DNA of 51,313 nucleotides from Actinomycetes bacterium (GTDB lineage: Bacteria; Actinomycetota; Acidimicrobiia; Acidimicrobiales; Palsa-688), in NCBI GenBank assembly GCA_021809885.1, contig JAJZJY010000001.1, positions 1-51,313 on the forward strand. Direction: 5' to 3'. This document shows positions 4,753 through 44,628 of the stretch, piece by piece. Made by a program: the position numbers and the translations under genes. The notes beneath the pieces were generated by a model. The model worked only from the letters and a program-made list of their open reading frames with translations, searched no databases and was not told the DNA's origin. Numbering within the stretch: position 1 is the first letter of the stretch; every line of letters starts with the position of its first letter.

Positions 4753-5471
4753 GCTTCCTCCAGGAGAGTGCCGAAACCGAGTACCCCGAGAGCCACGTAG
4801 ATCGCAGCGAACGCGGCGAGCAGCGTCAGCCATCGCCACCCGCCACCGCTGGACAGGCCGACGGCCGCCAGCCAGGCCTGCGTCGCGCCCAGGAGCACGG
4901 GAGCCACGACAGGGAGCAGCAACAGCGGCAGCAGGGTCTCGCGGACTCGCAGCCCCGCCGCCATGACGCCGTACACCGTGCCGGCCGCCGCCAGCCCGAC
5001 GGTGGCGAGCACGCACGTCGCGCCGAGCAGCAGAGGGTGGCCGAGTCGCGCCCCGAAGAGGACCACGATCCCGCCGGCCAGGACGGCCTCTAGCACGGCC
5101 AGCTGGGCGGCGACAGCCAGCGCCTTGCCGAGGAAGATGCCAGCGGCGTCGAGCCCCGACATCCGCAGGCCGTCCCGGGCACCGTCTGCCGCTTCCAGCC
5201 CGAAGCTGCGCTGGATTGCGAGCAGGGCGCAGAGGAGGACCGCCACCCAGAACAGGCCCGGTGCGGCATGGGTGAGGATGTACGGGTCCTGGTCGAAGGC
5301 GAAGCCGAAGAGCAGGAGCACGATCAGGGCGTAGGGGGCGACCTGGTTGGTGGTCACCCGCGAGCGCAGCTCGACGCGGAGGTCCTTGCCGGCGACGAGC
5401 ACGGCGTCACGCCACACGCCCGGCCTCCACAGCAGGTATGGGTGACGCCCCCCGCCCTGGCCCCACGCCAC
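4749..5471 (-). CDS. ccmB: Heme exporter permease CcmB
   Basis: Hydrophobic ~6-TM protein directly after the ABC ATPase. The start is ambiguous: GTG 5471 or in-frame GTG 5417. Both overlap the ccmA 3' end. Confidence 0.85.
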   Translation of the reverse strand: MAWGQGGGRHPYLLWRPGVWRDAVLVAGKDLRVELRSRVTTNQVAPYALIVLLLFGFAFDQDPYILTHAAPGLFWVAVLLCALLAIQRSFGLEAADGARDGLRMSGLDAAGIFLGKALAVAAQLAVLEAVLAGGIVVLFGARLGHPLLLGATCVLATVGLAAAGTVYGVMAAGLRVRETLLPLLLLPVVAPVLLGATQAWLAAVGLSSGGGWRWLTLLAAFAAIYVALGVLGFGTLLEEA

Positions 5472-8040: not shown

Positions 8041-11000
8041 TCACCCGGCCCGCTGCGCCCTCCAGGCCGAGCGCGTTCCCGGCCTGGTCCTGCCGGTCGC
8101 CTCGAGGAGGGCTTGGGGGGCTCCGGGCCCGGCGAGCCCGGCCTTTGTGATCGCCTCTGGGCCGGCTATGACCACTAGGTCATCGGGGAGCCACTCGCGA
8201 TCTGCCATGAGCCCGGCGTCGAGATCGTCGCCGGTGAGCGGCGAGACCACGAGCGGCTGGCCGGGGCCGAGGCGATGGGCCCAGGTGCCATCGAAGCGTC
8301 GTGGCCACGCCCTCGTGACCACCGGGACCCCGGCGCTGTTGGCGACGCCGACAAGGCGGCGACCCTCGGCGTCGGCTGCGTCTCCCCGGCCGAAGGGGGC
8401 TGCGACGACGACACCTTGGTGCTCGCGCTCGTCGAGGACCTTGCCGCTCCAGCGCGCTGTCAGCACCGAACGGTTCCTCGTCGTCTCACGGAAGCGCTCG
8501 GTGCCAGACACCGACTCTTGGTGGACCAGGACGCTCGCCGGCTCGTAGCGCACCGACCAGCCGGCCTGCCCGAGCTTCAGGCACAGGTCGACGTCCTCGT
8601 TCCCATTCCAGTAGCTCTCGTCGAAGCCGCCGACCGCCTCGAACGCGCTGCGGCGCACCGCCACGACTGCGGCCGTCACCGCTCGCAGCTCCGACGGCCG
8701 GTTGGCGGCTGGATGGTCGGCGGGCTGGCGGTAGAGAAGATGGAACCCGTCGAGCCATCCTTCACCGTCTGCGTCGTAAAGAAGACCGACACCCGCGTGT
8801 TGGATGGTTCCGTCCGGGAAGAGGAGTTTCGATCCGACCATCGCCACGCGTGGGTCAGCGATGGCGCCGAGGAGCGGCTGTAGCCAGCCCTGTTTCGCCA
8901 CCACGTCGTTGTTGCAGAACACAACGACGTCGGAGGTTGCCACACTCGCCCCCTGGTTGCAGGCGACCGCGAAACCGCGGTTGGTGTCGTTGCGCACCAC
9001 GGTCACGCCCGCGGATGGGTTGTCGGTGACGTTGCTGGTCGCGTCGGTCGATCCGTTGTCGACCAGCACGACCTCGTAGGTTCCATCCGCGAGAGTCGCC
9101 TGGATGCTCTGTAGGCACCGCAGCGTCCAGGGCGCCCGGTTCCAGCAGGGGATGACGATGGTGGCGGCTCTACGCCGGTTGCGCACCGCAGAAACGACAG
9201 TAGCGGCCGCAGGGGGCTTGCGGATGGAGGCTGCGTGGCCCGGGGCGAGGCTCTCGACGATCTGGGCGGCGCCGGCGATGTCGGCGTCCGCGAGGCGCGA
9301 GAGGATCGCGCTCAGCAGCGTTCCTGCCGCCTCGTCGGCGAAGGCCCCTACCGCCGCTGCCGCGGCCATCACCCGATCCAGCGTCGGGCGTTCGTCGTCG
9401 GAGGCGATGACGAGCAGCGGGCAGGGTCCGAGACCGCGCTGGCGAAGCCTTCCCGCCCACACGATCGCGTTGGCCGGGTTCGCTCGAGCCGACACCAGCC
9501 CGACCGCCGCGAGCACCTCGGTGTCGTCGGGAGAGCTGCCCCACATGCCTTCGAGGACCGCCAGGCTGTCGTCGGCGTCGATCTGGAGGAGCTGCGCCAG
9601 GTAGGCTCTCGTCTGTCCGGCTGGTATGGCCCGGCCGATCTCGACGAGAGCCACGCCTCCGACCTTGCAGTCGTGCACGACGGCACCGAGGTGCTCGTGC
9701 GAGACTCCTTCGTCGCGGATCGTGTCGATGACGACCTTCGCCGACTGCGCTGCGTCGCCGAGGAAGCGGTGGCAGGAGGCCACCATGTGCGCGATCTCCG
9801 AGCGTTGATGCAAGAAGCGGTCCTCGTCCAAGCCGGGCAGCTCCAGGCGGGAGAAGAGTGCCAGCGCCTCCGCGTAGAGCCTGGCGGCATAGGCCAGCTG
9901 GGCGGTGAGGATGTCTGCGAGCAGGGGGTTCGCTGACCGCCGTCGGAGCTTGGCGATCAGCTCGGCCGACTTGTCGAGGTCGCTCGCTGACATCGCGGCG
10001 AGGGCCCCCACATGAAGCCCCATCCGCGCCGTCGTCGGCTCCGGGCTGTCGGCGGCCGCCTCGAGATGACCTATGGCCTCTCTGGCACTTCCGGTGGCGA
10101 GCAGCGAGCGCCCGACATCCAGTTCGGCTCGCCCCAACGCCACCGGCCCATCGGCCTCGCTGAGGGCTGTTCGGGTCAGCGAGAGGTTGCGCTCGAGCTT
10201 GCCCTTCCCGGCGACGATCTTGTCCTCGTAGCCGTGGTGGAGGATCGTCGCCCCGTTGAGAAGTGGCGCCACGACTCCGGCGCCGTCGGGGCGGACGACC
10301 TGCTCGTGGACCCTGCCCTCCCAGCGAAGATCGCTGCGAAACAGCCGGACCGCCGGGTGGTTGGTTCTCGACTCGACGCCGTGTCCCATGACGTTGCTGA
10401 CTGTGACCAGCACCGCGTCGGCCGGGGGGTCGTCACTCAGGTACCTCCTGATGGCGGCCGAGTCTCCGGTCCACTCCTCGTCTGCGTCGATCCAGAGGAT
10501 CCATCGTCCACGGCAGTGCTCCGCCACGGAGTTGCGCGCCTTAGCGAAATGCTCGTCCCAGCCTATGTCGAGCACCTTCGCTCCGAATCCCGCAGCGACC
10601 TCGGCGGTGCGGTCGGTCGACCCGGTGTCTCCAACGACGATCTCGTCGACGAGGTGCTCGATCGACGCCAGGGCGGTTCCTAGGGTCTGCTCCTCGTCGC
10701 GTACGATGAGGCAGGCCGAGATGAGCGGAGCGCCCGATTCGGAGCGCGGGCCGAGACCGAGGAAGCGGCGACGGTTCGCGGTTTCCACCGCGCGCCAATC
10801 AAGGTTGTTGGCGTCGAAGCTGACGTGGCCCTCGTGATGCACGTAGGAGCCGTCCGCGATCACCAGGCAGCCGCCGGCGTCTCGCAGGCGTCGGCAGAGA
10901 TCGTCGTCTTCGTAGCCGCCGATCTCGTAGCCCTCGTCGAAGCCTCCGATCGCGTCGAAGGCGTGGCGGCGAACAGCGAGACAGAAGCCGACCAGGCGCT

Positions 11001-11475
11001 CCGCCGGCCTCGACGCTTTGGAGTTGGCCTCTCGCCAGGCGCGCTCGAAGGCGCGCAGCTCCGACTTCTTGGTATAGGCCGCAGTTGGGACGAGCTGTGG
11101 CCCGGAGACGAAGTTCGAGCGGGGCCCGGCTGCTACGACGGCGGGATCGGAGAAGGGCGCGAGCAGCTCGGTGAGCCACCTTCCGACCGGGACGGTGTCG
11201 CTGTTCAGAAAGACGATGATCTCGCCTGCGGATGCCGCTGCTCCCTGGTTGCAGCCAGCGGCAAAGCCGGCGTTGTCGGCGTTGGTGACGACGTCGACCC
11301 ACGGGAACGTCTTCAAGCCACCGGAGGTGCGGTCGGTCGAGCCGTTGTCCACGACGATGGCCTTGTCGTGCGGGCCCATCGTCGGGCGAAGCGCTTCGAG
11401 GCAGGCTCGGGTGTGCTCCCACGCGTTCCACGCCGGGATGACGATCGACGCGGACAGGCGTTGCGCTTGGGCCAA
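8041..11475 (-). CDS. Giant multidomain glycosyltransferase: GT2 - GT2 - helical/TPR-like - GT2 - C-terminal domain
   Basis: Three separate GT2 signatures: IVIPAWN...VVDNGSTDRT...FLNSDT, CLIVRDEE...VGDTGSTDRT...WIDADEE, and VIPCWN...LVDNGSTDAT...FCNNDV...NEDVDLC. TTG 11475 is preceded by AAAGAGG and lies 4 nt after the csrA stop. The ORF-track start at 11616 would overlap all of csrA. Confidence 0.8.
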   Translation of the reverse strand: MAQAQRLSASIVIPAWNAWEHTRACLEALRPTMGPHDKAIVVDNGSTDRTSGGLKTFPWVDVVTNADNAGFAAGCNQGAAASAGEIIVFLNSDTVPVGRWLTELLAPFSDPAVVAAGPRSNFVSGPQLVPTAAYTKKSELRAFERAWREANSKASRPAERLVGFCLAVRRHAFDAIGGFDEGYEIGGYEDDDLCRRLRDAGGCLVIADGSYVHHEGHVSFDANNLDWRAVETANRRRFLGLGPRSESGAPLISACLIVRDEEQTLGTALASIEHLVDEIVVGDTGSTDRTAEVAAGFGAKVLDIGWDEHFAKARNSVAEHCRGRWILWIDADEEWTGDSAAIRRYLSDDPPADAVLVTVSNVMGHGVESRTNHPAVRLFRSDLRWEGRVHEQVVRPDGAGVVAPLLNGATILHHGYEDKIVAGKGKLERNLSLTRTALSEADGPVALGRAELDVGRSLLATGSAREAIGHLEAAADSPEPTTARMGLHVGALAAMSASDLDKSAELIAKLRRRSANPLLADILTAQLAYAARLYAEALALFSRLELPGLDEDRFLHQRSEIAHMVASCHRFLGDAAQSAKVVIDTIRDEGVSHEHLGAVVHDCKVGGVALVEIGRAIPAGQTRAYLAQLLQIDADDSLAVLEGMWGSSPDDTEVLAAVGLVSARANPANAIVWAGRLRQRGLGPCPLLVIASDDERPTLDRVMAAAAAVGAFADEAAGTLLSAILSRLADADIAGAAQIVESLAPGHAASIRKPPAAATVVSAVRNRRRAATIVIPCWNRAPWTLRCLQSIQATLADGTYEVVLVDNGSTDATSNVTDNPSAGVTVVRNDTNRGFAVACNQGASVATSDVVVFCNNDVVAKQGWLQPLLGAIADPRVAMVGSKLLFPDGTIQHAGVGLLYDADGEGWLDGFHLLYRQPADHPAANRPSELRAVTAAVVAVRRSAFEAVGGFDESYWNGNEDVDLCLKLGQAGWSVRYEPASVLVHQESVSGTERFRETTRNRSVLTARWSGKVLDEREHQGVVVAAPFGRGDAADAEGRRLVGVANSAGVPVVTRAWPRRFDGTWAHRLGPGQPLVVSPLTGDDLDAGLMADREWLPDDLVVIAGPEAITKAGLAGPGAPQALLEATGRTRPGTRSAWRAQRAG

Positions 11476-11479
11476 CCGT

Positions 11480-11719
11480 TTACCTCTTTGCTCTTTGCGC
11501 CGCAAGGGACGCTGGGGCCAGCGTGGATGGGGCTTCGTTCTCGGCGGCCGCCCTGTTCGCCTCGGCGAGAGCCAGGTAGATCTCCTGTCGATGAACGGGG
11601 ACCGATCTCGGAGCATCCACTCCGACTCGCACCTGCGTTCCGTCTATCTCGAGGATCTTGACGACGATGTTCTCGCCGACCGTGATGCACTGCCCGACCC
11701 GCCGTGTCAGGATGAGCAT
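11480..11719 (-). CDS. csrA: Carbon storage regulator CsrA (flagellar, FliW-partnered type)
   Basis: 79 aa. MLILTRRVGQCITVGENIVVKILEIDGTQVRVGVDAPRSVPVHRQEIY is the canonical CsrA fold sequence. SD AGAGG is upstream. Overlaps the fliW 3' end by 13 nt. Confidence 0.9.
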   Translation of the reverse strand: MLILTRRVGQCITVGENIVVKILEIDGTQVRVGVDAPRSVPVHRQEIYLALAEANRAAAENEAPSTLAPASLAAQRAKR

Positions 11720-12093
11720 CGTGCCGCCTCTAGGGACAGAGGGGCGGCGACAGGTGCCGAGAGGTCGCGTACGACGACCTGGGCGGCGAGACCGTTGTCG
11801 CGGTTGACCACCACGGGGCCGAGGAGGTTGGCGGTTACCGACGTGGCTGAGACCGTGAGGATCAGCCACACCACCACGGCGGAGGAATCACCGACCCCGA
11901 GGGTCTCGAGGGTGTCGTCGTCGATGACCATCGGGGCGATATCGGGGAAGAACGAGGCTGGTTCGGTGAGCATGACGAAGCTCGCGTCGGTCGCACTGAG
12001 GCGAACCAGGGGCGCCGGCCCCATGTGCTCGACATGAAACGAGCGTCGTCCGGGAAAGCCGGGAAGTCCGACGGGGAACTCGATCGCGTGCAC
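11707..12093 (-). CDS. fliW: Flagellar assembly factor FliW
   Basis: 128 aa. FPVGLPGFPGRRSF and ANLLGPVVVN motifs typical of FliW, directly upstream of csrA. GTG 12093 is the first possible start because an in-frame stop lies just upstream. Confidence 0.85.
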   Translation of the reverse strand: MHAIEFPVGLPGFPGRRSFHVEHMGPAPLVRLSATDASFVMLTEPASFFPDIAPMVIDDDTLETLGVGDSSAVVVWLILTVSATSVTANLLGPVVVNRDNGLAAQVVVRDLSAPVAAPLSLEAARCSS

Positions 12094-12096
12094 CTC

Positions 12097-12330
12097 TTAC
12101 CTATCGGCAGACCGACGGGAGTCGTCGGTACGATCGGGAGATGAATCGTCTTGGGAGGTGTAGGAGCGCCACAGACGAGCGAGGACCGAGGTCCCGCCAG
12201 AGACGATGACCAAGGCGACCAGGTAGCGGGTCAGGAGCCCGTATACCGAGAGGTTGCCGGAGGAGAAGACGACCAGGGCCGGCACGCAGATCACCACAGC
12301 AAGGGCTGCTAGCGTCGATGGGCGGGGCAT
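12097..12330 (-). CDS. Small two-TM membrane protein, unknown function
   Basis: 77 aa. Two hydrophobic helices and an acidic/Ser-rich tail. ATG start 9 nt after the flhA stop. Its last codons contain the GCCGATAG box of fliW. Confidence 0.5.
   Translation of the reverse strand: MPRPSTLAALAVVICVPALVVFSSGNLSVYGLLTRYLVALVIVSGGTSVLARLWRSYTSQDDSSPDRTDDSRRSADR
12101..12108 (-). promoter_or_regulatory. GCCGATAG box 7 nt upstream of the fliW GTG
   Basis: GCCGATAG-GTAAGAG-GTG(12093). Embedded in the last codons of the 77-aa ORF. Confidence 0.45.
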
Positions 12331-16979: not shown

Positions 16980-17401
16980 ACCAAGAGCCCCCCGTCGGGG
17001 TCGGATCGGACCAAGCGGAGACATCCGTCGGCTCCGTACTCTCGGTGTCCGTCCAGAGCGCCGAGAGCGTCCTGGGCGGCCAGAAGTCTCGTTGCGATCA
17101 GGGTGGAGGCCTCCGACGCTCTGCGCGACGAGAGGGTCAGCATCTCCTTGAACTCGATCCAAGCCCCGGCCACTGAGGGGTCGGTCGTGGTCCCAGCGGA
17201 GCTGAGCTCCTCCAAGCCGTCGTTGTCGAAGGTCCTGGCCGCGTCGACGACGGCTGCGGTCAGCTCCTCTTGGGCGAGGTCGATGAGGCGCCGCGGACGG
17301 TCTGCGCTCACCAGCAGCTCGAGCTCCTCGACTCGCAGCAGGATGCGCTCAGCGGCGTGCACTCCACGGCTGAGCACTTCGGTGACATCTGTTCGACCCA
17401 T
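16976..17401 (-). CDS. FlgN-like export chaperone (putative)
   Basis: 141 aa, helical and acidic, immediately upstream of and coupled to flgK. Called by position and composition only. ATG 17401 was chosen because it lies 7 nt after a GCCGATAG box. Confidence 0.5.
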   Translation of the reverse strand: MGRTDVTEVLSRGVHAAERILLRVEELELLVSADRPRRLIDLAQEELTAAVVDAARTFDNDGLEELSSAGTTTDPSVAGAWIEFKEMLTLSSRRASEASTLIATRLLAAQDALGALDGHREYGADGCLRLVRSDPDGGLLV

Positions 17402-17408
17402 GCCACAG

Positions 17409-17416
17409 CTATCGGC
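17409..17416 (-). promoter_or_regulatory. GCCGATAG box 7 nt upstream of the flgN-like ATG
   Basis: GCCGATAG-CTGTGGC-ATG(17401). Confidence 0.5.
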
Positions 17417-17453: not shown

Positions 17454-17483
17454 CTCACCCAGGTATGGCACCGATGCCGATAG
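17454..17483 (+). promoter_or_regulatory. Sigma-28-type promoter, CTCA-N18-GCCGATAG, 7 nt upstream of the GT2-GT4-MT GTG
   Basis: CTCA (17454-17457), 18 nt, GCCGATAG (17476-17483), TTGGTAG, GTG (17491). Confidence 0.55.
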
Positions 17484-17490
17484 TTGGTAG

Positions 17491-20034
17491 GTGGATCTCG
17501 CTTGCTTCGACGTGACCTTGGTGTTGGTGACCCGGGACCGTGCGGACCTCACGCTCGCCTTCGTGCAGGCGCTCGCCAAGGTATCACCTCCTTCGGACTT
17601 CGAGGTCGTGATCGTCGACAACGGATCGTCCGACGCCACCTCTGCCCTGCTCGCCATCCTCGGAGGCGACGTGAAGACGATACGCAACGACCGCGAGGCC
17701 GGCTTCGCTGCCGCCTGCAACCAAGGTGCGGCTGTGGCAGCAGGTCGACATCTCGTCTTCGCCGAGGCTCGCTGCGAGCCCCTCGCCGGGTGGATGCGAG
17801 CCATGGTAGGTCTGCTCGACGCTCACGCCCAGATCGGCGCCGTCGCCCCGAGGCTGATCGCGCCCGACACCACGATGCACTCGGGCGGTCTCGCGCTGGC
17901 CTCGCGAGGCGAGACCCTTGAAGCGGTCCCCCGCCTGAGAGGGATCCCAGCCAGCGACTCCCGTTCGGCCACGCCGAGAGAGGTCGACGCTGCCTCCTCG
18001 ACGTGCATGGCGGTTCGCCGAGAGGCCTTCGAGTCGCTCGGAGGCTTCGACGAGGGCTACCTTCACGGCGGCGGAGACGTCGAGTTGTGCCTGGCGATCG
18101 CCGACGCCGGGTGGAAGATCGTCTACGAGCCGGCCGCAATGCTGATGGTCAAAGGGACTTCCCTTCCGGGGTGCGGCGACCTCGTGCTCTGCGCTGCCGA
18201 CCGCGACCGGCTGAACCGGCGCTGGGGGACGCGGGTGGCGCCATCTGTGGACCTGGGAGGCGACGGGGCTCCACGAGAGGTGCGACGACACCTGAGGGAG
18301 GCGCGCTCCGGGCATCGTGGCGCGAACGTGGCGGGCTTCTTCGACGCCGAGCTCGGTATCGGCCAGTCTGCCCGTCTGGTGGTGGACGCTCTCGAGGCGT
18401 CGTCGGTCGATGTCGTCTCGTCCTCGTACTACCGACATCTGAACCGGGCCGCTCAGCGCTTCGAGCGCCGCGGCGACGCGAGCTCCCCGTGGGATCTCAA
18501 CATCATCTGCGTGAACGGAGACATGCTCGGACTGTTCGCTCTCGAGGCTGGGGAAAGGTTCTTTCGGGATCGCTACAGCGTGGCGATGTGGCACTGGGAA
18601 CTCGAGGAGCTCCCGGAGAGCCATGTCAGAGCGATCGACCTCGTCGACGAGATATGGGTCGGATCGGAGTTCACCAGAGCGGCGGTGAGCGCCTGCACCG
18701 ACAAGACGGTGAGAACCGTGCCGCTACCGGTCGCCCGGCGACGAGGTGGGTCGGTCGAGGCCCACAGCCGCGAGGAGATGGGAATCCCGGAGGGTTTCGT
18801 CTTCGGCTTCATGTACGACGCCAACTCGATCGCGGCGCGTAAGAACCCCGACGGTCTGATCTCCGCCTTCTGTGACGCCTTCGAAGACGGCGAGGGGCCG
18901 GCACTCGTCGTCAAGACGATCAACGCAGGGGCGAGGCCAGACGTTGCCGCAGCGCTTGCACGCCAGGCGTCTCGGCGCAGCGACATCACCGTGGTGGACC
19001 GCTACCTCGACCGCTCCCAGGTGGGGGCCTGGACCGGCTTGGTCGACTGCTACGTCTCGTTGCACCGCTCCGAGGGGTTCGGCCTCACCATCGCCGAGGC
19101 GATGTCGTGGGGAACGGCGGTGATAGCGACCGCGTACTCGGGCAACCTCGACTACATGACCGACGACAACTCCTACCTGGTGCCTTGGGTGCCGGCCGAG
19201 GTGCCAGCCGATGCCGCCCCCTACCCACGGGGCGCCAGATGGGCCGAGCCGGACATGGCATGCGCCTCCGCCATGCTGCGCAGCGTGTGGGAGGACCCCG
19301 ACGGCGCCAGGGCACGCGGGGCGAGGGGAAAGGCCGACATCGCACGAACCCATGGGATCGAGGCGGCGAAAGCGGTCGTCGAAGAGCGCCTGGAGGCCAT
19401 CGAGGCCACGATGGCCGCCAGGCGCAAGAGGGCGCACAGCGCCAAGCCCTCCCCTTGTCCGACCCTGGTGCCACACCCCGACTTCGGCACCGGGGTGCGC
19501 TTCGGGACCGCCGACTCGGCGCTGCCAGCCGACGCTTCGGCCCCGCTGCGACTCAATCTCGGAGCTGGCGACGAGCCCCGACGCGGCTTTGTGTCGATCG
19601 ACATGCGTCGCGACGTAGCCGACGTGGTGGCTGCGCTCGAACGCCTCCCCTTCCCCGGCGCGACCGTCGCCGAGATCCTCGCCTCCGACGTGCTGGAGCA
19701 CTTCCCTGCCTCGCGCACAGCGGAGCTGCTCGCCGAGTGGAACCGGGTGGCCGTCATGGGGGCCAAGATCACCGTCAGGGTCCCCAATCTGCTCGCCCTG
19801 GCACAGCTGCTAGTGGCCCACCCCCACACACGGGTCAACGTCATTCGCAACATCTACGGCGGTCACCGCTGGGGGCCGGATGGGGCCTGGGACACGCATC
19901 ACACTGGATGGACGCCCGACATGCTCGCAGCCGAGCTCGTCGCAGCAGGCTTCGTCGTGCTCAGCGACGACGGTGACACCAACAACACCGTCGTCGCCAT
20001 GAAGGTCGCGGAGCCGAGCCGACAACGCGCCTAG
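17491..20034 (+). CDS. Tri-domain enzyme: GT2 glycosyltransferase - GT4 (group 1) glycosyltransferase - SAM-dependent methyltransferase
   Basis: 847 aa. GT2: VIVDNGSSDAT...GGDVELC. GT4: EGFGLTIAEAMSWGTAVIATAYSGNLDYM. Methyltransferase: LNLGAGDEPRRGFVSIDM...ASDVLEHF. The GTG start is 7 nt after GCCGATAG. Its stop shares the tetranucleotide CTAG with the convergent flhB stop. Confidence 0.85.
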   Translation: MDLACFDVTLVLVTRDRADLTLAFVQALAKVSPPSDFEVVIVDNGSSDATSALLAILGGDVKTIRNDREAGFAAACNQGAAVAAGRHLVFAEARCEPLAGWMRAMVGLLDAHAQIGAVAPRLIAPDTTMHSGGLALASRGETLEAVPRLRGIPASDSRSATPREVDAASSTCMAVRREAFESLGGFDEGYLHGGGDVELCLAIADAGWKIVYEPAAMLMVKGTSLPGCGDLVLCAADRDRLNRRWGTRVAPSVDLGGDGAPREVRRHLREARSGHRGANVAGFFDAELGIGQSARLVVDALEASSVDVVSSSYYRHLNRAAQRFERRGDASSPWDLNIICVNGDMLGLFALEAGERFFRDRYSVAMWHWELEELPESHVRAIDLVDEIWVGSEFTRAAVSACTDKTVRTVPLPVARRRGGSVEAHSREEMGIPEGFVFGFMYDANSIAARKNPDGLISAFCDAFEDGEGPALVVKTINAGARPDVAAALARQASRRSDITVVDRYLDRSQVGAWTGLVDCYVSLHRSEGFGLTIAEAMSWGTAVIATAYSGNLDYMTDDNSYLVPWVPAEVPADAAPYPRGARWAEPDMACASAMLRSVWEDPDGARARGARGKADIARTHGIEAAKAVVEERLEAIEATMAARRKRAHSAKPSPCPTLVPHPDFGTGVRFGTADSALPADASAPLRLNLGAGDEPRRGFVSIDMRRDVADVVAALERLPFPGATVAEILASDVLEHFPASRTAELLAEWNRVAVMGAKITVRVPNLLALAQLLVAHPHTRVNVIRNIYGGHRWGPDGAWDTHHTGWTPDMLAAELVAAGFVVLSDDGDTNNTVVAMKVAEPSRQRA

Positions 20035-28516: not shown

Positions 28517-29782
28517 TCAGACCCTCAGGTACATGCCTGGGGCCCATGGGCGGTCGGGGACGGCAGGCGGGGTGGACGGGGCGCCGGGGGGCGATGAGCG
28601 GACTGGGACGGGCGAAGACCGGCCCTGCGCTGCGGGTCCCTGCCCGCTGCGTCCCATGTCCGAGCCCCCCGAGCTCGACACGGTGACACTGCCCCCGACG
28701 GCGGTGCCTATCGCTGACTGCGATGCCTTCAAGGCGCTTGCGCCGTCCAGGGTCGCCGCCAGGAGATGGACCGAAACAGCACCCCCTCGCAAGGTGACGA
28801 GGGCCTCCACCTGACCTAGCTCAGGTGGTGTCAGCGTTACGTTCATCGACCAGGTCCCGTCCTGGTTGCGCCCTGCTGTCGCCAAGGCAGCCGACAAGTG
28901 GTCGGCGAGAGCGTGGGCGGGCGAGGAGGCTAAGGGCGATGCCGCCTGGGCGGTCCCTGGCACGGCAAGGACTGAGCCACTCGAGGGGGGCGGCGACCCC
29001 AACGCCGAGAGCGTGACGGACGACGACCCCGGACGAGCATCTTCCTGTTGGGAGGTGGGAGCCACGGCCGAGTGGCGGCTGACGGCATCCGCCATCTTGA
29101 TCTCGGGTGCCACGGCAAGATGATCGGGCGTTACCGCCGCACCGGCCGTGGCACCGGATGTCGACCCGGCACCGGCAGGCGCTTCGGCATCTGAGCGTGC
29201 TGCGACCGCCGGCTTCGCCGATGCCGACAACGGCTCCGTGAAGCGTGCCGACGCGGTGGTGCCCGTGGGGCGACCAGACGGCGCGGCTCGCCCCCCGGTG
29301 GCTGCTGCGGTGACGACGGCCGTCGGTCCCCCGCCCGCAACCGGTGGCTGGGTGGTACCGGGAGATTCGGTCACACCTGGAGACTCGGCGTTGGTCGCGG
29401 GTGTGGCGTTGGTCGCGGGTGTGGCGTTGGTCGCGGGTGTGGCGTTGGTCGCGGGTGTGGCGTTGGTCGCGGGTGTGGCGTTGGCGTGACCGGGGTTGGC
29501 CGTGCCGATCGCCACGACCTTGCCTGGAGGAGGAAGGGGCGCTCCATCACCTGGGAGCGGTCGCGGAGGACAGGCGCCGCGACCGACCTTGGGGGAGTGA
29601 TTCGCCGCCGTCGACGGCGAGGGCCCCGTGGCCGTCTCGGGAGAAAGGCCGCCATGTGACGCGGCGGGTGCAGCGGCGAGGGCCCCGAGGATGGCAGCGA
29701 AGCGTCCCGGACGGTGCCGGGCGGCAGGGGACCTCGGGGATGCATGGGGTGAAGCGGCTGGGCCCGCGGGAGCCACTGCCAT
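28517..29782 (-). CDS. fliK: Hook-length control protein FliK
   Basis: 421 aa. Low-complexity Pro/Ala/Thr-rich ruler region and a C-terminal Flg_hook-like domain (LTPPELGQVEALVTLRGGAVSVHLLA). Lies upstream of flgD. Its ATG overlaps the TAA of the upstream gene by 1 nt. Confidence 0.7.
   Translation of the reverse strand: MAVAPAGPAASPHASPRSPAARHRPGRFAAILGALAAAPAASHGGLSPETATGPSPSTAANHSPKVGRGACPPRPLPGDGAPLPPPGKVVAIGTANPGHANATPATNATPATNATPATNATPATNATPATNAESPGVTESPGTTQPPVAGGGPTAVVTAAATGGRAAPSGRPTGTTASARFTEPLSASAKPAVAARSDAEAPAGAGSTSGATAGAAVTPDHLAVAPEIKMADAVSRHSAVAPTSQQEDARPGSSSVTLSALGSPPPSSGSVLAVPGTAQAASPLASSPAHALADHLSAALATAGRNQDGTWSMNVTLTPPELGQVEALVTLRGGAVSVHLLAATLDGASALKASQSAIGTAVGGSVTVSSSGGSDMGRSGQGPAAQGRSSPVPVRSSPPGAPSTPPAVPDRPWAPGMYLRV
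29388..29484 (-). repeat. Five perfect 18-bp tandem repeats (plus 7-nt partial) inside fliK, encoding (ATPATN)x5
   Basis: Plus-strand unit gcgttggtcgcgggtgtg at 29388-29405, 29406-29423, 29424-29441, 29442-29459 and 29460-29477, then gcgttgg. In frame; translated as NATPATNATPATNATPATNATPATNATPATNA. Confidence 0.95.
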
Positions 29783-36100: not shown

Positions 36101-36490
36101 TTAGCTCCCAATGGTCAAGACGGACTGATATGCGGCAGTTGCGTCTTTGATGACGGCAGCGTTCGCCTGGTATTCCGACTGGGCGGTGGTCAAGGCCACC
36201 ATCTCGGTAGCCATGCTCACTGCGGGTCTCGCCACATATCCCGCCGCGTCGGCCAGCGGGTTGGTCGGGTCGTATGCAAGAATACCTTTGGCAGATCCGA
36301 GCGCGATGGCGACAGCCCCCACCCCGCCTGTTGCGGAAGGCTGGGCCGCTACGTACTGGGCTTGGTACACCGGCTTGCCCGGCGTGGTCACGTCCGAGGC
36401 GTTCGCCACGTTGCCGCCGATCGTATCGAGCCAGAGCTGGTCGACGTTCATCCCCGAGGTGGCGATCGACAGGGTCGGGAAAAGGCTCAC
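36101..36490 (-). CDS. flgC: Flagellar proximal rod protein FlgC
   Basis: 129 aa. SIATSGMNVDQLWLDTIGGNVANA N-terminus and C-terminal EMVALTTAQSEYQANAAVIK. GTGA overlap with the flgB stop. Confidence 0.9.
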   Translation of the reverse strand: MSLFPTLSIATSGMNVDQLWLDTIGGNVANASDVTTPGKPVYQAQYVAAQPSATGGVGAVAIALGSAKGILAYDPTNPLADAAGYVARPAVSMATEMVALTTAQSEYQANAAVIKDATAAYQSVLTIGS

Positions 36491-36831
36491 TGAAAGCCAC
36501 CCCCCATGGAGCCACGCAGGATACGGAACTGGATGTTCAACGCGTTCACGACCGCTTGGGCCTGGAGGTCGTTGGACGACAGCTTCGACAGCTCCTGGGT
36601 GAGATCCACGTTGTTGCCGTTGGGCCCCGCCGGTGCGGCCGACAGTCCCGCTGCCGGCGTGACTGTCGAAGGAGCCGACGACCCGAGAGCAGCGCGCAGC
36701 GAGCTCTCGAAAGAGTAGGTCCTCGATACATATCCTGGCGTCTGGTCGTTGGCGATGTTGCCGGCGAGCACCTGGCGCTGCGCGCTGAGCGCGCTGAGCG
36801 CATAGCCGAGCACGTCGATGGTCGAGCTCAT
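36487..36831 (-). CDS. flgB: Flagellar proximal rod protein FlgB
   Basis: 114 aa. LSAQRQVLAGNIANDQTPGY N-terminal rod motif. There is no Shine-Dalgarno in the 15 nt upstream. The ATG forms an ATGA overlap with the small-ORF stop. Confidence 0.88.
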   Translation of the reverse strand: MSSTIDVLGYALSALSAQRQVLAGNIANDQTPGYVSRTYSFESSLRAALGSSAPSTVTPAAGLSAAPAGPNGNNVDLTQELSKLSSNDLQAQAVVNALNIQFRILRGSMGGGFQ

Positions 36832-36920
36832 CGGAGACGCGGACCAACGGAGACCCGGCAGTTGAGGACCGGGGGGAGGAGGGCCGCCATGTTCTCGTGA
36901 CGGTGGCGGGCGTCATGCAT
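36828..36920 (-). CDS. Leader small ORF (30 codons) coupled to flgB; part of a conserved leader element (copy A)
   Basis: Strong RBS: AGAAGGAGA, then 8 nt, then ATG at 36920. Encodes MHDARHRHENMAALLPPVLNCRVSVGPRLR. The TGA overlaps the flgB ATG (ATGA). Paralogous to 39678-39836. Confidence 0.4.
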   Translation of the reverse strand: MHDARHRHENMAALLPPVLNCRVSVGPRLR

Positions 36921-36997
36921 CGTGGTGGTCTCCTTCTGTTGTGTGGACCAGCCCCCATCCGAAGCTCGCTGGACCAGCTGATGTCTGACCAGATCCT

Positions 36998-37027
36998 CTA
37001 TCGGCAACCCAACCACCTCATGCTGAG
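36998..37027 (-). promoter_or_regulatory. Sigma-28-type promoter, CTCA-N18-GCCGATAG, for the flgB leader/operon
   Basis: Minus strand reads CTCA (37027-37024), N18, GCCGATAG (37005-36998). The -35 region overlaps the stop codon of the upstream sigma-like gene. Confidence 0.55.
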
Positions 37028-37776
37028 ATCGCCTGCGCGGGATGGTCATGGAGGTAGGAGTCGAGGACCTGCGGCAGGGTTGGCCCCAGACGGCGATGGA
37101 AGTTGGCCGGCCGGCGTACACGTTCGCCGGCTGCGACCTTTATGAGGTACTCCTTCACCTCCGGGTCGGGATGGGCCGAGATCACCCCCTCCACCTCCGT
37201 CCTCATCAGCCCCGCTATGACCTGCTCCGATGCATCACATGCTCCAGATGGCGAGGCGGTCGTCATGTGGTTCTCGGCCGAGGTGCCGTAGCTCACGATT
37301 GCACGCAGTACAGGGCTTCCACCCTGTACTACCTCGTCGAGAAGCGCGTCTCGCTGCGAGACATCGGGCTCAGCTCCGTTGCGCTGCGCGGCCTCCTCCC
37401 ACGCCGACTCATAGGCCTTCCGCAGCGTTCGGGGCCCGCGACCAAGGGGATCCACGGCTCGGCAGGCATCGATCAAGGCGTGATGGAGCTGACCGTCGAG
37501 ATAGGCGACTTGCTGAGCCGGAGGGGCATCGAGGTCAAGGCGGTCCAAGGCGACTGCCACCCGCTCGCCCAACCCCGAGACCAGGTCATCGTGAACCGAC
37601 ACCGGCAACCCAGCCGCGCGCTCCGAAGCTAGCATCTTCGCATGAGCGAAGAGAACCTTGACAAGAGCCGACCGTTTCGAAGTGTAGCTGGCTCCGGAAC
37701 CTGAGGCGGCCTCAACGGCGTCGGCGAGGACGCGCTTCGTGGATGCCGATCGCCGCCTGGGCACGAAACCTCTCAT
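37018..37776 (-). CDS. Divergent sigma-70-family-like protein (FliA/WhiG-like region 2; atypical region 4)
   Basis: 252 aa. LVKVLFAHAKMLAS...DDLVSGLGERVAVALDRLD...VAYLDGQLHHALIDACRAVDPLGRGPRTLRK follows the region 2.1-2.4 spacing pattern of the fliA product in this window. The C-terminal HTH is only weakly recognisable. Confidence 0.4.
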   Translation of the reverse strand: MRGFVPRRRSASTKRVLADAVEAASGSGASYTSKRSALVKVLFAHAKMLASERAAGLPVSVHDDLVSGLGERVAVALDRLDLDAPPAQQVAYLDGQLHHALIDACRAVDPLGRGPRTLRKAYESAWEEAAQRNGAEPDVSQRDALLDEVVQGGSPVLRAIVSYGTSAENHMTTASPSGACDASEQVIAGLMRTEVEGVISAHPDPEVKEYLIKVAAGERVRRPANFHRRLGPTLPQVLDSYLHDHPAQAISA

Positions 37777-37953: not shown

Positions 37954-39684
37954 TCAGAGGACATCGCCACTCCTATCGCCAGTGCCGGTGGCCAGCCGAC
38001 AGCCAAGGTATGATCCGAGCTCCGGTCCAGAGATGGGCCTGCAAAACAAGTACCCTTGCGCGTGAGGACAGCCGACGCGACGCAACGCAACGGCTTCGGA
38101 CTCGGCCTCGACGCCTTCGGCGATAACGTCCAAGCCGAGAGCGAGGCCGAGTGTGACCACCGTTGTCACGATGGCGGCATTGGTGGCGTCGAGGCCGACT
38201 CCGGTCACGAAAGAGCGATCGATCTTCAATGCGTTCACCGGTAGTCGCTTGAGATAGGCCAGGGACGAATAGCCGGTCCCGAAGTCGTCGAGCGCAACTC
38301 TCACGCCCAGCTCCCGGAGCGACCAGAGACGGCGGACGGCCGCGTCGGGGTCGGAGAGGAGCGCGCTTTCGGTGACCTCCAAGGTGAGCCGATGGGCTTG
38401 GAGACCCGAGGCGCTCAAGGCTCTCCCCACCAACGTCGGTAGGTGGGGATCCTCGAGCTGGAGGGCCGAAACGTTGATAGCGACAGAGAGCGGGCCTGCC
38501 ACTCCAACAGGCCAGCTCGTCGCTACATGGCAAGCCTCTCGGAGCACCCATCCCCCAAGCGCGACTATGACACCTGAGCTCTCAGCAGCTCCGATGAAAG
38601 CATCTGGGGCGGCAAGCGAGCCGGTCGGTTGAGCCCATCGGACCAGGGCTTCGGCTCCGACCGGCCGACCGGTGACAAGGTCGACAACTGGTTGATAGTG
38701 CACCACAAACTCGTTGTCGCTCAACGCTTGGAGCAGTGCTGCCGGTAGCACCACTCGGCTGAGCGCGTCGGTCCGCTCCGAGGCGCTGAAGAACCGGAGA
38801 CGGTTGCCGCCGCTGCTGGAGGCGACTCCCATAGCCAGTTCAGCGTCCTCGATGAGAAGGGCGGGCAAGACGCTCGGAGAGGTGGCGAACGCTATGCCGA
38901 TGCTCACGGTCAGGACCACCCGGTCGCCGTCGACGAGGAACGGCTCGGCGAAGCAGGCCGTAACCCGCTCCGCCAGAGCGCTGGCCGCCAGCCTTCCCGC
39001 TCGGGTCTCACACGCTACTGCCAGGCAGTCGTAGTCGACCACGCCAAGGTCGTCGCCAGCCCGTAGGTCGCTTTGCACACGCCGAGTCGCTGCGACGAAC
39101 ATCTGCGCGGCGAACCCACGCCCGCAGGCCCGGGCCACCGCGCGGTACTGGTCCAGTTTGACCACCAAGACCACCACCTGGGACCGGGAGTCGGGTGGAA
39201 GCCTGCCGACGGCCTCGGCAATACGCGCTGTGAACTCTCTACGCTGCGGGAGCTCTTCGAGGAGCCTTCGGCGGGCGTAGTGCTCTGCCTCGTAGGCGTT
39301 CTCCCTATCGAGCTCGCTGATCGTGGCCACCACCCATCCCGACGACGGGTCCTCGAGCCCGTTGCGGAAAGTGACCTCCGTCGGGCACCACCGGCCGTCG
39401 TTGTGGCGGGTTCGCAGGACCAGAGCCACCCTCGCCCCCGGCGCTGCCAAGCACCTCCTCCACGCCTCGCGCCACCGATCCAAGTCGTTGGGATGCACAA
39501 GATCTCTGGTGCGCATCTCGAGACGTTGCTCCGGCGAGTAGCCGAGGATGCGGGAGTACGAAGGGCTGACTTCCACCGCCTCGCCGAAGCGGTCGAGAAG
39601 CACTAGGCCGTCATCCGCGTCCCGAAGGAGGGCTTGCTGCCGCGTCTCTTGCTCGGAGCGGGTCGACGCCGTGTCGATCACCAT
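37954..39684 (-). CDS. PAS - degenerate GGDEF - EAL protein (predicted c-di-GMP phosphodiesterase)
   Basis: 576 aa. PAS (LVLLDRFGEAVEVSPSYSRILGY). The GGDEF position reads GVVDYDCLAV (degenerate). EAL motifs are intact: EALVRW, AINVS, LEVTES, DDFGTGYSSL, KIDRSF, AEGVE, QGY. Confidence 0.9.
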   Translation of the reverse strand: MVIDTASTRSEQETRQQALLRDADDGLVLLDRFGEAVEVSPSYSRILGYSPEQRLEMRTRDLVHPNDLDRWREAWRRCLAAPGARVALVLRTRHNDGRWCPTEVTFRNGLEDPSSGWVVATISELDRENAYEAEHYARRRLLEELPQRREFTARIAEAVGRLPPDSRSQVVVLVVKLDQYRAVARACGRGFAAQMFVAATRRVQSDLRAGDDLGVVDYDCLAVACETRAGRLAASALAERVTACFAEPFLVDGDRVVLTVSIGIAFATSPSVLPALLIEDAELAMGVASSSGGNRLRFFSASERTDALSRVVLPAALLQALSDNEFVVHYQPVVDLVTGRPVGAEALVRWAQPTGSLAAPDAFIGAAESSGVIVALGGWVLREACHVATSWPVGVAGPLSVAINVSALQLEDPHLPTLVGRALSASGLQAHRLTLEVTESALLSDPDAAVRRLWSLRELGVRVALDDFGTGYSSLAYLKRLPVNALKIDRSFVTGVGLDATNAAIVTTVVTLGLALGLDVIAEGVEAESEAVALRRVGCPHAQGYLFCRPISGPELGSYLGCRLATGTGDRSGDVL

Positions 39685-39836
39685 GTTCTCCGGGGAGGGA
39701 CGGAGGCCCGGCCGTCGAGGGCCTGGAGGAGCAGGAGGAGCGCTGCCATGTTCTCGTGACCGCAGTCGGCATCATGCGCCGTGGTGCTCTCCTTCTGCTC
39801 GTGCGGTCCAAGCGCACCAACACCCCCCCTCACCAT
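39678..39836 (-). CDS. Leaderless small ORF (52 codons) overlapping the EAL gene start; conserved leader element (copy B)
   Basis: ATG 39836 lies 7 nt after CCCGATAG. Encodes MVRGGVGALGPHEQKESTTAHDADCGHENMAALLLLLQALDGRASVPPRRTW. The TGA (39678-39680) lies just past the EAL-gene ATG (39684). About 80% nt identity to copy A by hand alignment. Confidence 0.35.
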   Translation of the reverse strand: MVRGGVGALGPHEQKESTTAHDADCGHENMAALLLLLQALDGRASVPPRRTW

Positions 39837-39843
39837 GCTCGTG

Positions 39844-39871
39844 CTATCGGGCCCCGTCCGGCTGAGGTTTA
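39844..39871 (-). promoter_or_regulatory. Sigma-28-type promoter, TAAA-N16-CCCGATAG
   Basis: Minus strand reads TAAA (39871-39868), 16 nt, CCCGATAG (39851-39844). Close to the classical TAAA-N15-GCCGATAA. Confidence 0.5.
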
Positions 39872-40023: not shown

Positions 40024-40031
40024 GCCGATAG
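40024..40031 (+). promoter_or_regulatory. GCCGATAG box 7 nt upstream of the fliA ATG (putative autoregulated leaderless promoter)
   Basis: GCCGATAG-ACGGGTT-ATG(40039). No recognisable TAAA or CTCA at -35. Confidence 0.45.
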
Positions 40032-40038
40032 ACGGGTT

Positions 40039-40722
40039 ATGAGAACGGCTCCCCACACCGACGAGGAGGGGGCTTGGAGTGCTTATGGATCCGAACGCAG
40101 CCTCGAGAACCGCAACCGGCTCGTCGAGTTCCACGCCTCGGTGGCGAGACGTGCTGCACTACGCTGCCTCCCCTACGCGCGAAGCGTCGGGGCGGCGATG
40201 ACGGACATCGAGGACCTGGAGGGGATCGCCTTCGAGGGCCTCATCGAAGCTATCGAACGCTTCGATCCGACGCGGGGGGTGGACTTCGCCCACTATGCCA
40301 ACCTGCGCGTCGACGGACATGTCAGAGACGCTTTGCGCGCGGATGACTACTTGTCGCGGCGTTCCCGCCAGCAGGTGAAGGCCTGGATGGGAGAAGATTT
40401 CGAGGCGATGAGCGATGAGAAGAAGAGGACGGCAGCGCGCCTCGCCAGTCAGCGCCCCATCCACCTCGCCGACCTGCCAGCGGGCGACGAAGTCGAGGGG
40501 CTCACGGAAGTCGCCGGGATAGAAGACGAGATCCTCTCCCCCTCCGTCGTCACCGACGCTCTGGAGTCGCTGAACCCGGCAGAGCGGACGGTGATCGAGT
40601 TTCGCTATCTGCTCGGGATGTCGCTGTCGGCCATTGGGGTGGTCCTGTCGGTCACCGAGAGCCGAGCTTGCCAGATCCACCTGGCGGCGCTGAGCCGGCT
40701 GCGCGCAATCGGAAGGCCCTGA
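40039..40722 (+). CDS. fliA: Flagellar sigma factor FliA/WhiG (sigma-28 family)
   Basis: 227 aa. Region 2: NRLVEFHASVARR...DLEGIAFEGLIEAIERFDPTRGVDFAHYANLRVDGHVRDALR. Region 4 HTH: LNPAERTVIEFRYLLGMSLSAIGVVLSVTESRACQIHLAALSRLR. Confidence 0.85.
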   Translation: MRTAPHTDEEGAWSAYGSERSLENRNRLVEFHASVARRAALRCLPYARSVGAAMTDIEDLEGIAFEGLIEAIERFDPTRGVDFAHYANLRVDGHVRDALRADDYLSRRSRQQVKAWMGEDFEAMSDEKKRTAARLASQRPIHLADLPAGDEVEGLTEVAGIEDEILSPSVVTDALESLNPAERTVIEFRYLLGMSLSAIGVVLSVTESRACQIHLAALSRLRAIGRP

Positions 40723-44575: not shown

Positions 44576-44580
44576 GTTGG

Positions 44581-44595
44581 CACCTTTCGTCCGTG
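44581..44595 (-). promoter_or_regulatory. Putative CsrA binding region in the flagellin 5' leader
   Basis: Minus-strand RNA reads AUCACGGACGAAAGGUG. It has one ACGGA motif and a second GG motif overlapping the SD, preceded by a small hairpin CCCCAUGACGGGG (44606-44618). Analogy to the two-site hag leader of B. subtilis. Confidence 0.35.
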
Positions 44596-44628
44596 ATCGA
44601 TAACGCCCCGTCATGGGGTTCGGAGTGT

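Follow-up and report, generated by a model that had tools for sequence, protein, structure and literature searches.

A short leader ORF before flgB and its paralog before a putative c-di-GMP phosphodiesterase gene: a candidate for translational coupling in an uncultured actinobacterium

Introduction

How do ribosomes enter the first gene of a flagellar operon when this gene has no Shine-Dalgarno (SD) sequence of its own? The question is raised by a stretch of 51,313 nucleotides (nt) from an actinobacterium of the order Acidimicrobiales, Palsa-688 in the GTDB lineage (the window, i.e., positions 1 to 51,313 of contig JAJZJY010000001.1, GenBank assembly GCA_021809885.1). Here flgB, the first gene of the basal-body operon, is preceded by a leader containing a short upstream open reading frame (uORF-A), and part of this leader is repeated before a gene for a PAS-GGDEF-EAL protein, a putative cyclic di-GMP (c-di-GMP) phosphodiesterase. 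An earlier note on this DNA, made from the sequence alone, had proposed that translation of flgB depends on termination-reinitiation from the uORF, that the same element recurs before the EAL gene and that its peptide may be under selection. The computational analysis reported here favors, with a probability of roughly 0.55, the reading that the two leaders contain paralogous translated ORFs and that uORF-A delivers ribosomes to the SD-less flgB start.

The lineage is apparently uncultured, the nearest named protein matches being metagenome-assembled genomes (MAGs) labelled Acidimicrobiia and Nocardioides. At least 18 contigs of the window's species exist among NCBI MAGs and the JGI, ENA and Logan assemblies; 10 of them were retrieved and show 99.6-99.97% identity to the window. 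Contigs and related loci are indicated below by L numbers.

The flgB Leader

The leader is located on the minus strand, as are all the features of the two leaders described here. It starts with the -10 box of a predicted FliA/WhiG-type promoter, GCCGATAG (36998-37005), with a predicted transcription start at ~36990, and continues, 60 nt after the box, with the SD sequence AGAAGGAGA (36929-36937), CCACCACG and an ATG at 36920, the spacer between AGAAGGAGA and this start codon being 8 nt. From the ATG, 29 further codons lead to a TGA (36830-36828), which shares bases with the flgB ATG at 36831 in the form of an ATGA; uORF-A (36828-36920) comprises 30 codons plus the stop, and its product is MHDARHRHENMAALLPPVLNCRVSVGPRLR. 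The near-ideal ribosome-binding site, the ATG, the 30-codon frame and the overlap of its TGA with the flgB start, as described in the earlier note, are all in place. The start of flgB (36487-36831) is itself well defined, as residue 2 already aligns to TIGR01396 and the relatives begin alike, with M-x-x-T-[IV]-[ND]-[VA]-L.

SD strength was expressed as the duplex energy of the 19 nt before a start codon with the anti-SD sequence, and 22 starts in the locus were compared. With -2.2 kcal/mol, flgB is the second-weakest of the 22, only the closely coupled fliF (-1.9) being weaker, which bears out the claim that it lacks an SD; its value is comparable to that of the leaderless fliA and is the weakest among the starts that are neither leaderless nor closely coupled. 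The other SD-less starts in the locus belong indeed to genes that are leaderless (fliA) or closely coupled to an upstream gene (fliF, a gene for a protein of 213 amino acids (aa) and an NlpC/SLT gene). The SD of uORF-A (-9.3 kcal/mol) is among the strongest of the 22, and a uORF with an equally good SD was found in only 7 of 300 shuffled leaders (~2%). The predicted probability of being unpaired is 0.83 at the uORF-A ATG versus 0.26 around the flgB start. Public gene callers report uORF-A in six of the ten same-species contigs, and the G+C content by codon position in the uORF frame (80/45/83, and 75/51/76 for the second copy described below) resembles that of real genes; this coding-like periodicity fits translation, or an origin from coding sequence.

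The six closest other flgB genes (75, 65, 65, 58, 57 and 51% aa identity) are arranged differently. All are preceded by a FliA-type -10 box, GCCGATAG in five of them and GCCGATAC in the 51% relative (L033); after the box, their leaders measure 58-94 nt and contain in six cases out of six an SD of their own (-6.9 to -9.5 kcal/mol), while neither a uORF nor the element was found in these six leaders. In the window, the AGAAGGAGA/ATG 36920 site lies ~77 nt after the -10 box, about where the relatives place the flgB start, and ~89 extra nt follow before flgB is reached. Since the six relatives have short, SD-bearing leaders devoid of uORFs, the arrangement before flgB is a derived, lineage-specific state; as the relatives keep both the box and their own SD, it follows that the window species displaced or lost the flgB SD. 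We infer that coupling to uORF-A is the best-supported route of ribosome entry to flgB.

One relative, L029, has a tandem duplication of GCGTCAGGCACTTGCCGATAG, a segment of the flgB promoter (~5290-5345), and thereby two FliA-type -10 boxes at a distance of 24 nt. Directly upstream of flgB, the window encodes a 252-aa protein without family match (37018-37776, minus strand), which is conserved in this position also in the three closest flgB relatives (L015, L016 and L018) with the common C-terminal motif DPEVKEYL.KVA.G.R.RRP.NFHRRLGPTLPQ; possibly it acts as a regulator in connection with the flagellar genes.

The Second Copy Before the PAS-GGDEF-EAL Gene

Copy A (36847-36950) and copy B (39700-39810) are identical at 84 of 104 nt in a local alignment with a 6-nt gap, which scores 91-92 versus a maximum of 29 in shuffles. 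The blocks in common are CAGAAGGAGA(C/G)CACCACG, in which one position differs, and GTCACGAGAACATGGC. Beyond this segment of ~105 nt, the copies remain colinear, with the weaker similarity remarked in the earlier note, up to the main ATG, which both reach through CTCCGT and 15 nt, the colinear extent to the start codon being ~125-150 nt; according to nhmmer, only these two copies are present in the window. The recurrence of the element before the EAL gene is therefore real in the sense of a paralogous copy. The SD-initiated ORF, however, is not common to both copies, because the codon aligned with ATG 36920 is GCG in copy B; no ATG, GTG or TTG occurs there 4-12 nt after AGAAGGAGA (39788-39796), where ACG GCG is found instead, and this SD-like motif, lacking a usable start codon, may be either a relic or a site for CsrA. 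The ATG after the SD is present only in copy A, that is, in the copy whose main gene has no SD, and this placement is what selection for rescue by coupling would produce.

The frame of copy B appears to be opened in another way. The PAS-GGDEF-EAL gene (37954-39684; EAL 1.7e-67, GGDEF 8e-12, PAS) is preceded by a predicted FliA/WhiG-type promoter, TAAA-N16-CCCGATAG (39844-39871), the spacing of which equals the reported consensus. CCCGATAG is followed by CACGAGC (7 nt) and by an ATG at 39836, which is in frame with the shared ORF and, given this geometry, would be a leaderless start. The resulting uORF-B (39678-39836) comprises 52 codons plus TGA, and its product is MVRGGVGALGPHEQKESTTAHDADCGHENMAALLLLLQALDGRASVPPRRTW. 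The TGA (39680-39678) overlaps the EAL GTG at 39681 as GTGA, 3 nt after the ATG at 39684; both EAL starts are in use by public gene callers, and the EAL start has its own GGAG as SD.

uORF-B is bounded by an 11-nt direct repeat with a spacing of 152 nt: the upstream copy, GA(G/A)CATGGTGA (39830-39840), contains the putative leaderless ATG, and the downstream one, GAACATGGTGA (39678-39688), contains the EAL start and the uORF-B stop. This repeat (shuffle p = 0.003) gives the impression of an insertion of ~141 nt into an EAL start that was leaderless at first, whereas the direct repeat flanking copy A, which resembles the flgB start, is not significant (p = 0.16). Two other possible origins were considered. 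That uORF-B arose by tandem duplication of the N-terminal coding sequence of the EAL gene and then decayed is not supported beyond the 11-nt direct repeat (local alignment p = 0.12; 36% identity at offset 152, z = 2.2, which is not the top offset). As for a mobile element resembling a miniature inverted-repeat transposable element, no terminal inverted repeats were found, but only internal imperfect ones and a G-rich 5' end facing a C-rich 3' end; the direct repeat around copy B may be a target-site duplication, and two copies are present in 51 kb.

The earlier note had seen in several synonymous third-position differences between the copies a hint of selection on the peptide. Such an excess was not confirmed, as the differences are distributed 9/10/8 over codon positions 1, 2 and 3. 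The Nei-Gojobori ratio of nonsynonymous to synonymous substitutions (dN/dS) is 0.70 in the uORF frame versus 0.74 and 0.92 in the other two frames, and the amino acid is altered in 13 of about 30 aligned codons. No constraint on the peptide is apparent between the two copies.

Probable Coupling of uORF-A to flgB

Experiments in E. coli and in Haloferax have demonstrated strict coupling at ATGA overlaps (Huber et al. 2019, PMC6728339). The pairs described here have the same structure, that of coupled overlapping ORFs: they are co-directional and joined by a 4-nt overlap, ATGA for uORF-A/flgB and GTGA for uORF-B/EAL. Moreover, the upstream ORF has an initiation signal of its own, which is the SD with its 8-nt spacer in copy A and the predicted leaderless ATG 7 nt after the -10 box in copy B; the downstream start is SD-less in copy A; and the junction type is repeated in this operon, with 4-nt overlaps at six gene junctions within the locus. 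Unlike the known cases, the upstream partner is a leader ORF of 30 or 52 codons without a conserved product, and it represents a lineage-specific insertion.

The following mechanism can be envisaged. The ~105-nt lineage-specific segment, present in two FliA/WhiG-driven transcripts, would be the body of a translated uORF that ends on the main start codon, and in the flgB leader it would separate flgB from the only SD available. Ribosomes would load at AGAAGGAGA/ATG 36920, translate 30 codons through the partly structured leader and stop at the UGA of the AUGA; at the SD-less flgB AUG, either reinitiation or unfolding of the start site for initiation would follow. The production of FlgB, and probably the entry into the whole basal-body operon, would then depend on uORF translation. 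In the EAL leader, the same frame would be opened by a leaderless AUG (39836) at the transcription start and extend for 52 codons to the UGA of AUGGUGA, the EAL start having GGAG as well. The peptide would be irrelevant, and the act of translation would be what matters. The cassette would be native to the EAL leader and would have been copied from there into the flgB leader.

The leaders of the EAL orthologs (60, 56, 55, 50 and 46% aa identity) are also long, and each contains an ATG-initiated uORF, with an SD before it in four cases out of five. In L054, the uORF has 54 codons and a moderate SD (-7.0) and ends 25 nt before the main start; in L055-57 it has ~50 codons and follows GAGGAGGAAGAGCT with a strong SD; in L058/59 it has 18 codons, including a C20 run, with an SD of -10.8 kcal/mol (computed for L058), and ends 4 nt before the main start. 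In L061, the uORF (25 codons, SD -11.5 kcal/mol) overlaps an SD-less main start as GTGA, and a GTGA overlap is found also for the 47-codon uORF of L060, the SD of which is weak or missing (0.1). Shuffled leaders matching the SD quality of these uORFs were 0 of 300 for L058 and 4 of 300 for L061. No significant DNA similarity to the window leaders was detected in these ortholog leaders (p = 0.24-0.93), and directly behind the uORF ATG a 4-nt indel separates L054 from L056; for these reasons, what recurs in the EAL leaders is a presumably translated uORF, rather than a peptide or an RNA motif.

Two features of these ortholog leaders deserve mention on their own. In L058 (~90-125) and L059 (1-30), a homopolymer of ~18-20 C, coding for poly-Pro, lies within the uORF a few nt before the main start; it is a candidate for slippage and phase variation, since changes in length would shift the uORF frame, or else an assembly artefact. 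L054 (1735-1990) and L056 (2020-2310), whose EAL proteins are 68% identical, share leader blocks, namely AGCTATGGC at the uORF start, CCGGCCGGCCAYCCTGG..AGCGGCTC..GCTCGAG, and GACGCCGATGAGCCG at the main start, with intervening indels that are not multiples of three; they may have a regulatory leader acting at the RNA level, unrelated in sequence to that of the window.

In Actinobacteria, polycistronic mRNAs are known that begin with a leaderless short ORF (Shell et al. 2015, PMC4633059; Canestrari et al. 2020, bioRxiv 10.1101/834739). uORF-B resembles them, as its ATG is located at the predicted transcription start, before the main gene, and two transcripts with a related short ORF recall the "ribulon" of those studies. 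Differences are the FliA/WhiG-type promoter, the SD-initiated start of copy A, and the absence of a sensory codon run and of a demonstrated duplex sequestering the ribosome-binding site.

Predicted FliA/WhiG-Type Promoters and Leaderless Starts

The flagellar/WhiG promoter consensus is -35 TAAA / -10 GCCGATAA (PMC8325347), with a reported spacing of T(A/C)AA-N16-GCCGATAA (bioRxiv 10.64898/2026.01.14.699351). The box GCCGATAG occurs seven times in the window versus 0.98 expected, a number reached in none of 100 shuffles, and all seven boxes lie upstream of a gene in the right orientation. In four of the seven, an ATG or GTG follows the box at exactly 7 nt and opens an ORF, which is the same spacing as in copy B: fliA (start 40039; box to start 40024-40041, plus strand), fliW (start 12093; 12093-12108, minus strand), an ORF of 141 aa without family match (start 17401; 17399-17416, minus strand) and a glycosyltransferase gene (start 17491; 17476-17493, plus strand). 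For fliA, fliW and the glycosyltransferase, the family matches reach to within 4-10 residues of these starts. fliA (40039-40722, plus strand) encodes a sigma factor whose best family matches are FliA/WhiG; it is divergent from the EAL gene and has its own GCCGATAG box and a probable leaderless ATG. We infer from these regularities that the FliA promoters of this organism often yield leaderless mRNAs, and they suggest that the flagellar sigma factor drives leaderless mRNAs, including that of an autoregulated fliA. A six-frame search for the RsiG anti-sigma motif, E...S..R...Q...D, gave no match, and a scan for sigma-70 promoters and intrinsic terminators returned nothing relevant in either leader. 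The combination of FliA/WhiG promoters with a fixed 7-nt spacing helps in the annotation of start codons and small ORFs in such little-studied lineages.

The boxes at 17409-17416 (minus strand) and 17476-17483 (plus strand) form a divergent, back-to-back pair. The flagellar cluster also contains very large multi-domain glycosyltransferase genes (8041-11616, minus strand, and 17491-20034, plus strand), with GT2 and GT4 plus a methyltransferase domain, at least one of which follows a FliA-type box, and their products may glycosylate flagellin. The gene that comes next after the NlpC/SLT gene is probably fliK, for hook length, and contains at 29387-29484 a perfect tandem repeat of 18 nt (GGCGTTGGTCGCGGGTGT, 5.4 copies); its length varies between strains by 54 nt, with 421 aa in the window and L023 versus 403 aa in L019-L021.

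Alternative Explanations

Several points weigh against coupling through uORF-A. The earlier note had called the uORF the only plausible entry to flgB: considering the six relatives it is the most plausible one, but "only" is too strong, as SD-less initiation is common in Actinobacteria (PMC4633059), and flgB might therefore not need the uORF. In copy B, AGAAGGAGA has been retained although no usable start follows it, and the motif may therefore serve something other than ribosome loading, e.g., CsrA binding. That both frames end on a start codon is not independent evidence, because the copies are colinear, and the in-frame indels between them fall in a CTC/CTG triplet repeat. Tests of covariation and purifying selection have no power on two copies from a single species. 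Promoters, transcription starts and the leaderless opening of copy B are predicted, and the proposed direction of copying, from the EAL to the flgB leader, relies on position, with no DNA homology to the leader of any relative.

The hag leader of B. subtilis has two GGA sites for CsrA, one of them covering the SD, and in E. coli CsrA regulates GGDEF/EAL mRNAs. The window contains fliW (11707-12093, minus strand; PF02623, 5e-21), which is downstream of flhA and apparently itself FliA-driven, and csrA (11480-11719, minus strand; PF02599, 5e-22), which overlaps it by 13 nt; the possibility of a CsrA site, an aside in the earlier note, becomes therefore a real rival. The presence of this pair in the window goes beyond that note, as do the predicted start of both leaders at FliA/WhiG-type promoters and the putative leaderless opening of copy B. 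According to this explanation, CsrA, with FliW as its antagonist, would occupy the AAGGA within CAGAAGGAGA and a GGA upstream of it and so repress the flgB operon together with the phosphodiesterase, the uORF being incidental or the point at which ribosomes are blocked. The upstream GGA is present in both copies (36960-36958 in A, 39809-39807 in B), and AGAAGGAGA with its flanks is identical at 17 of 18 positions, though copy B has no start to serve. The similarity to the known systems extends to the overlap of AAGGA with the SD and to the nature of the targets, motility and c-di-GMP; however, FliW-type systems are known to act on flagellin, and the candidate targets here are flgB and a phosphodiesterase. 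In addition, the motif can just as well be read as an ordinary SD, GGA triplets occur often at 69% GC, and the second invariant block, GUCACGAGAACAUGGC, has no GGA; a hairpin-loop position is not supported for the motif of copy B, which is predicted to be paired, with CUCCUC at 39734-39742 (probability ~0.8). CsrA as the principal explanation is accordingly held to be rather unlikely, but it can be reconciled with coupling, CsrA being the input and the uORF the transmission. The flagellin leader of the window (~44576-44625) has CACGGACGAAAGG just before the GTG start, a plausible CsrA site.

A second alternative is a neutral relic, i.e., part of a leader that was copied by ectopic duplication or gene conversion and is tolerated, flgB being translated without an SD and independently of the uORF. 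Its confinement to one species speaks for this. An nhmmer profile built on A and B found no homolog outside the species in 14 GTDB flgB loci, 10 closer flgB loci, 8 EAL-ortholog loci and 19 loci from a pattern scan, so that "conserved leader", as the earlier note had it, is not an appropriate term. The scan itself, with AAGGAG-N20-36-GTCASGAGAACATGG on a metagenome collection, gave 19 hits, all of them unrelated coding starts containing 'HENM'; the collection evidently lacks the species' own JGI contig, and the scan tells nothing on further copies in this genome. The window leaders are not significantly similar to the EAL or flgB leaders of relatives (p = 0.16-0.93) and, because of this, neither the source nor the direction of copying can be read from the sequence. 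The nearly equal dN/dS in all frames agrees with neutrality, and so does single-sequence folding, in which the minimum free energy is no better than that of shuffles (z = +1.44 for A, -0.81 for B).

Variation within the species bears on the same alternative. Copy A with uORF-A is invariant in 10 of the 10 retrieved contigs. Copy B is variable: L025 has CAC changed to CAG, and L028, which differs from the window by 18 substitutions and one 3-nt deletion over 5.4 kb, has six of these substitutions within ~110 nt, in copy B, a hot spot of variation that speaks for a relic. Five of these six changes go to the copy-A state in a mosaic pattern (L028 991-1139 versus window 39678-39830), and this points either to gene conversion between the leaders or to a B allele closer to the ancestral state. 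A neutral relic is nevertheless difficult to reconcile with an intact 17-kb operon that needs flgB expression, while the flgB SD is among the weakest of the locus and the relatives all keep strong ones. It leaves unexplained also the optimally spaced ATG after a perfect SD, with a frame ending on ATGA, only in the copy that needs it, an arrangement with an equal in ~2% of shuffles, as well as the recurrence of uORFs in orthologous EAL leaders. It is considered doubtful, to much the same degree as the CsrA explanation.

Classical leader-peptide attenuators, such as trpL, hisL, leuL and ermCL, have a short leader ORF whose translation sets the expression of the downstream operon, as would be the case here. 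In a sensory attenuator, the progress of ribosomes over a Leu run, Pro-Pro or His codons, or their occupancy, would control an SD-sequestering helix (AGGAG/CUCCU) or the loading of Rho, both transcription units sharing a translational signal as in a "ribulon". In agreement with this, RNAalifold, run on the four available, near-identical sequences, predicts for both copies a helix between AGGAG and a CUCCU further downstream. A single base pair shows covariation (GAY/GCR): A and L028 have C-G, B and L025 have U-A. This one pair and a covariation term of +1.44 are too little for a model; the two positions are exactly two of the changes that the earlier note had called synonymous, and gene conversion or ancestral polymorphism may explain the pair as well. 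The uORF body is rich in C (48-52%) and poor in G (22-23%), and its C/G ratio of ~2.1 ranks near the 96th percentile for the operon; this composition is compatible with a Rho-loading site, of which it is no proof. There is also a precedent in the leaderless Cys short ORFs of mycobacteria (bioRxiv 10.1101/834739). The two peptides, however, share no regulatory codon run (..AALLPPVLN.. in A and ..AALLLLLQAL.. in B): LLLLL is only in B, the PP pairs are at different places, and His, Pro and Leu are scattered. Unlike the classical attenuators, the leaders contain no terminator/antiterminator pair and are not conserved across species; the folding z-scores are not significant, and flgB has no SD to sequester. 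A sensory attenuator is hence quite improbable.

The c-di-GMP-I riboswitch Cd1 is located before flgB in Clostridioides difficile, and such riboswitches are described by the GEMM families of Rfam. A structured cis-regulatory RNA, e.g., one sensing c-di-GMP, would suit the gene context, which is typical of these riboswitches, the long leader before flgB and the two blocks invariant between the copies. As the earlier note had already failed to recognize a known riboswitch, so Rfam gave no match at the gathering score in four windows of 241-3801 nt and nothing relevant even at E <= 10. Unlike Cd1, the element folds no better than shuffles and occurs in one species, having no homolog in the related loci or the metagenome scan, and the flgB leaders of relatives are short and devoid of it; this explanation is very improbable. 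Lastly, a functional micropeptide family, (M/A)HDA..HENMAALL, in spite of the coding-like periodicity and of the ORFs being called by public gene callers, is essentially refuted by the sequence and hardly deserves belief, given the dN/dS and the 13 altered codons reported above, the population variants of the uORF peptides (H-to-Q, Q-to-P and L-to-P) and the lack of homologs, for when 5.8 billion proteins were searched with a profile of the peptide and 1.84 billion representatives with phmmer, nothing was found but the two ORFs of the species itself and two spurious tandem-repeat translations.

Conclusions

The principle of translational coupling is already known, and no new class of RNA or peptide regulator is revealed by this locus; what is new is a probable lineage-specific instance in one uncultured actinobacterial species. 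In a more speculative extension, which we regard as unlikely in its full form, the segment would be a portable translated-leader cassette, copied between FliA/WhiG transcripts and imposing one translation-dependent checkpoint on the basal-body operon and on the c-di-GMP phosphodiesterase, through CsrA at AAGGA and/or a passage sensitive to ribosomes or Rho; the two leaders, SD-led at flgB and leaderless at EAL, would form a motility "ribulon" kept similar by gene conversion.

If the coupling of uORF-A to flgB is true, entry into a 17-kb flagellar operon would hinge on a 30-codon ORF that is not present in relatives, providing a natural example of a leader insertion rescued by a stop/start overlap. 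The flagellar rod genes and the c-di-GMP phosphodiesterase next to fliA would, in that case, have been rewired by the copying of a leader.

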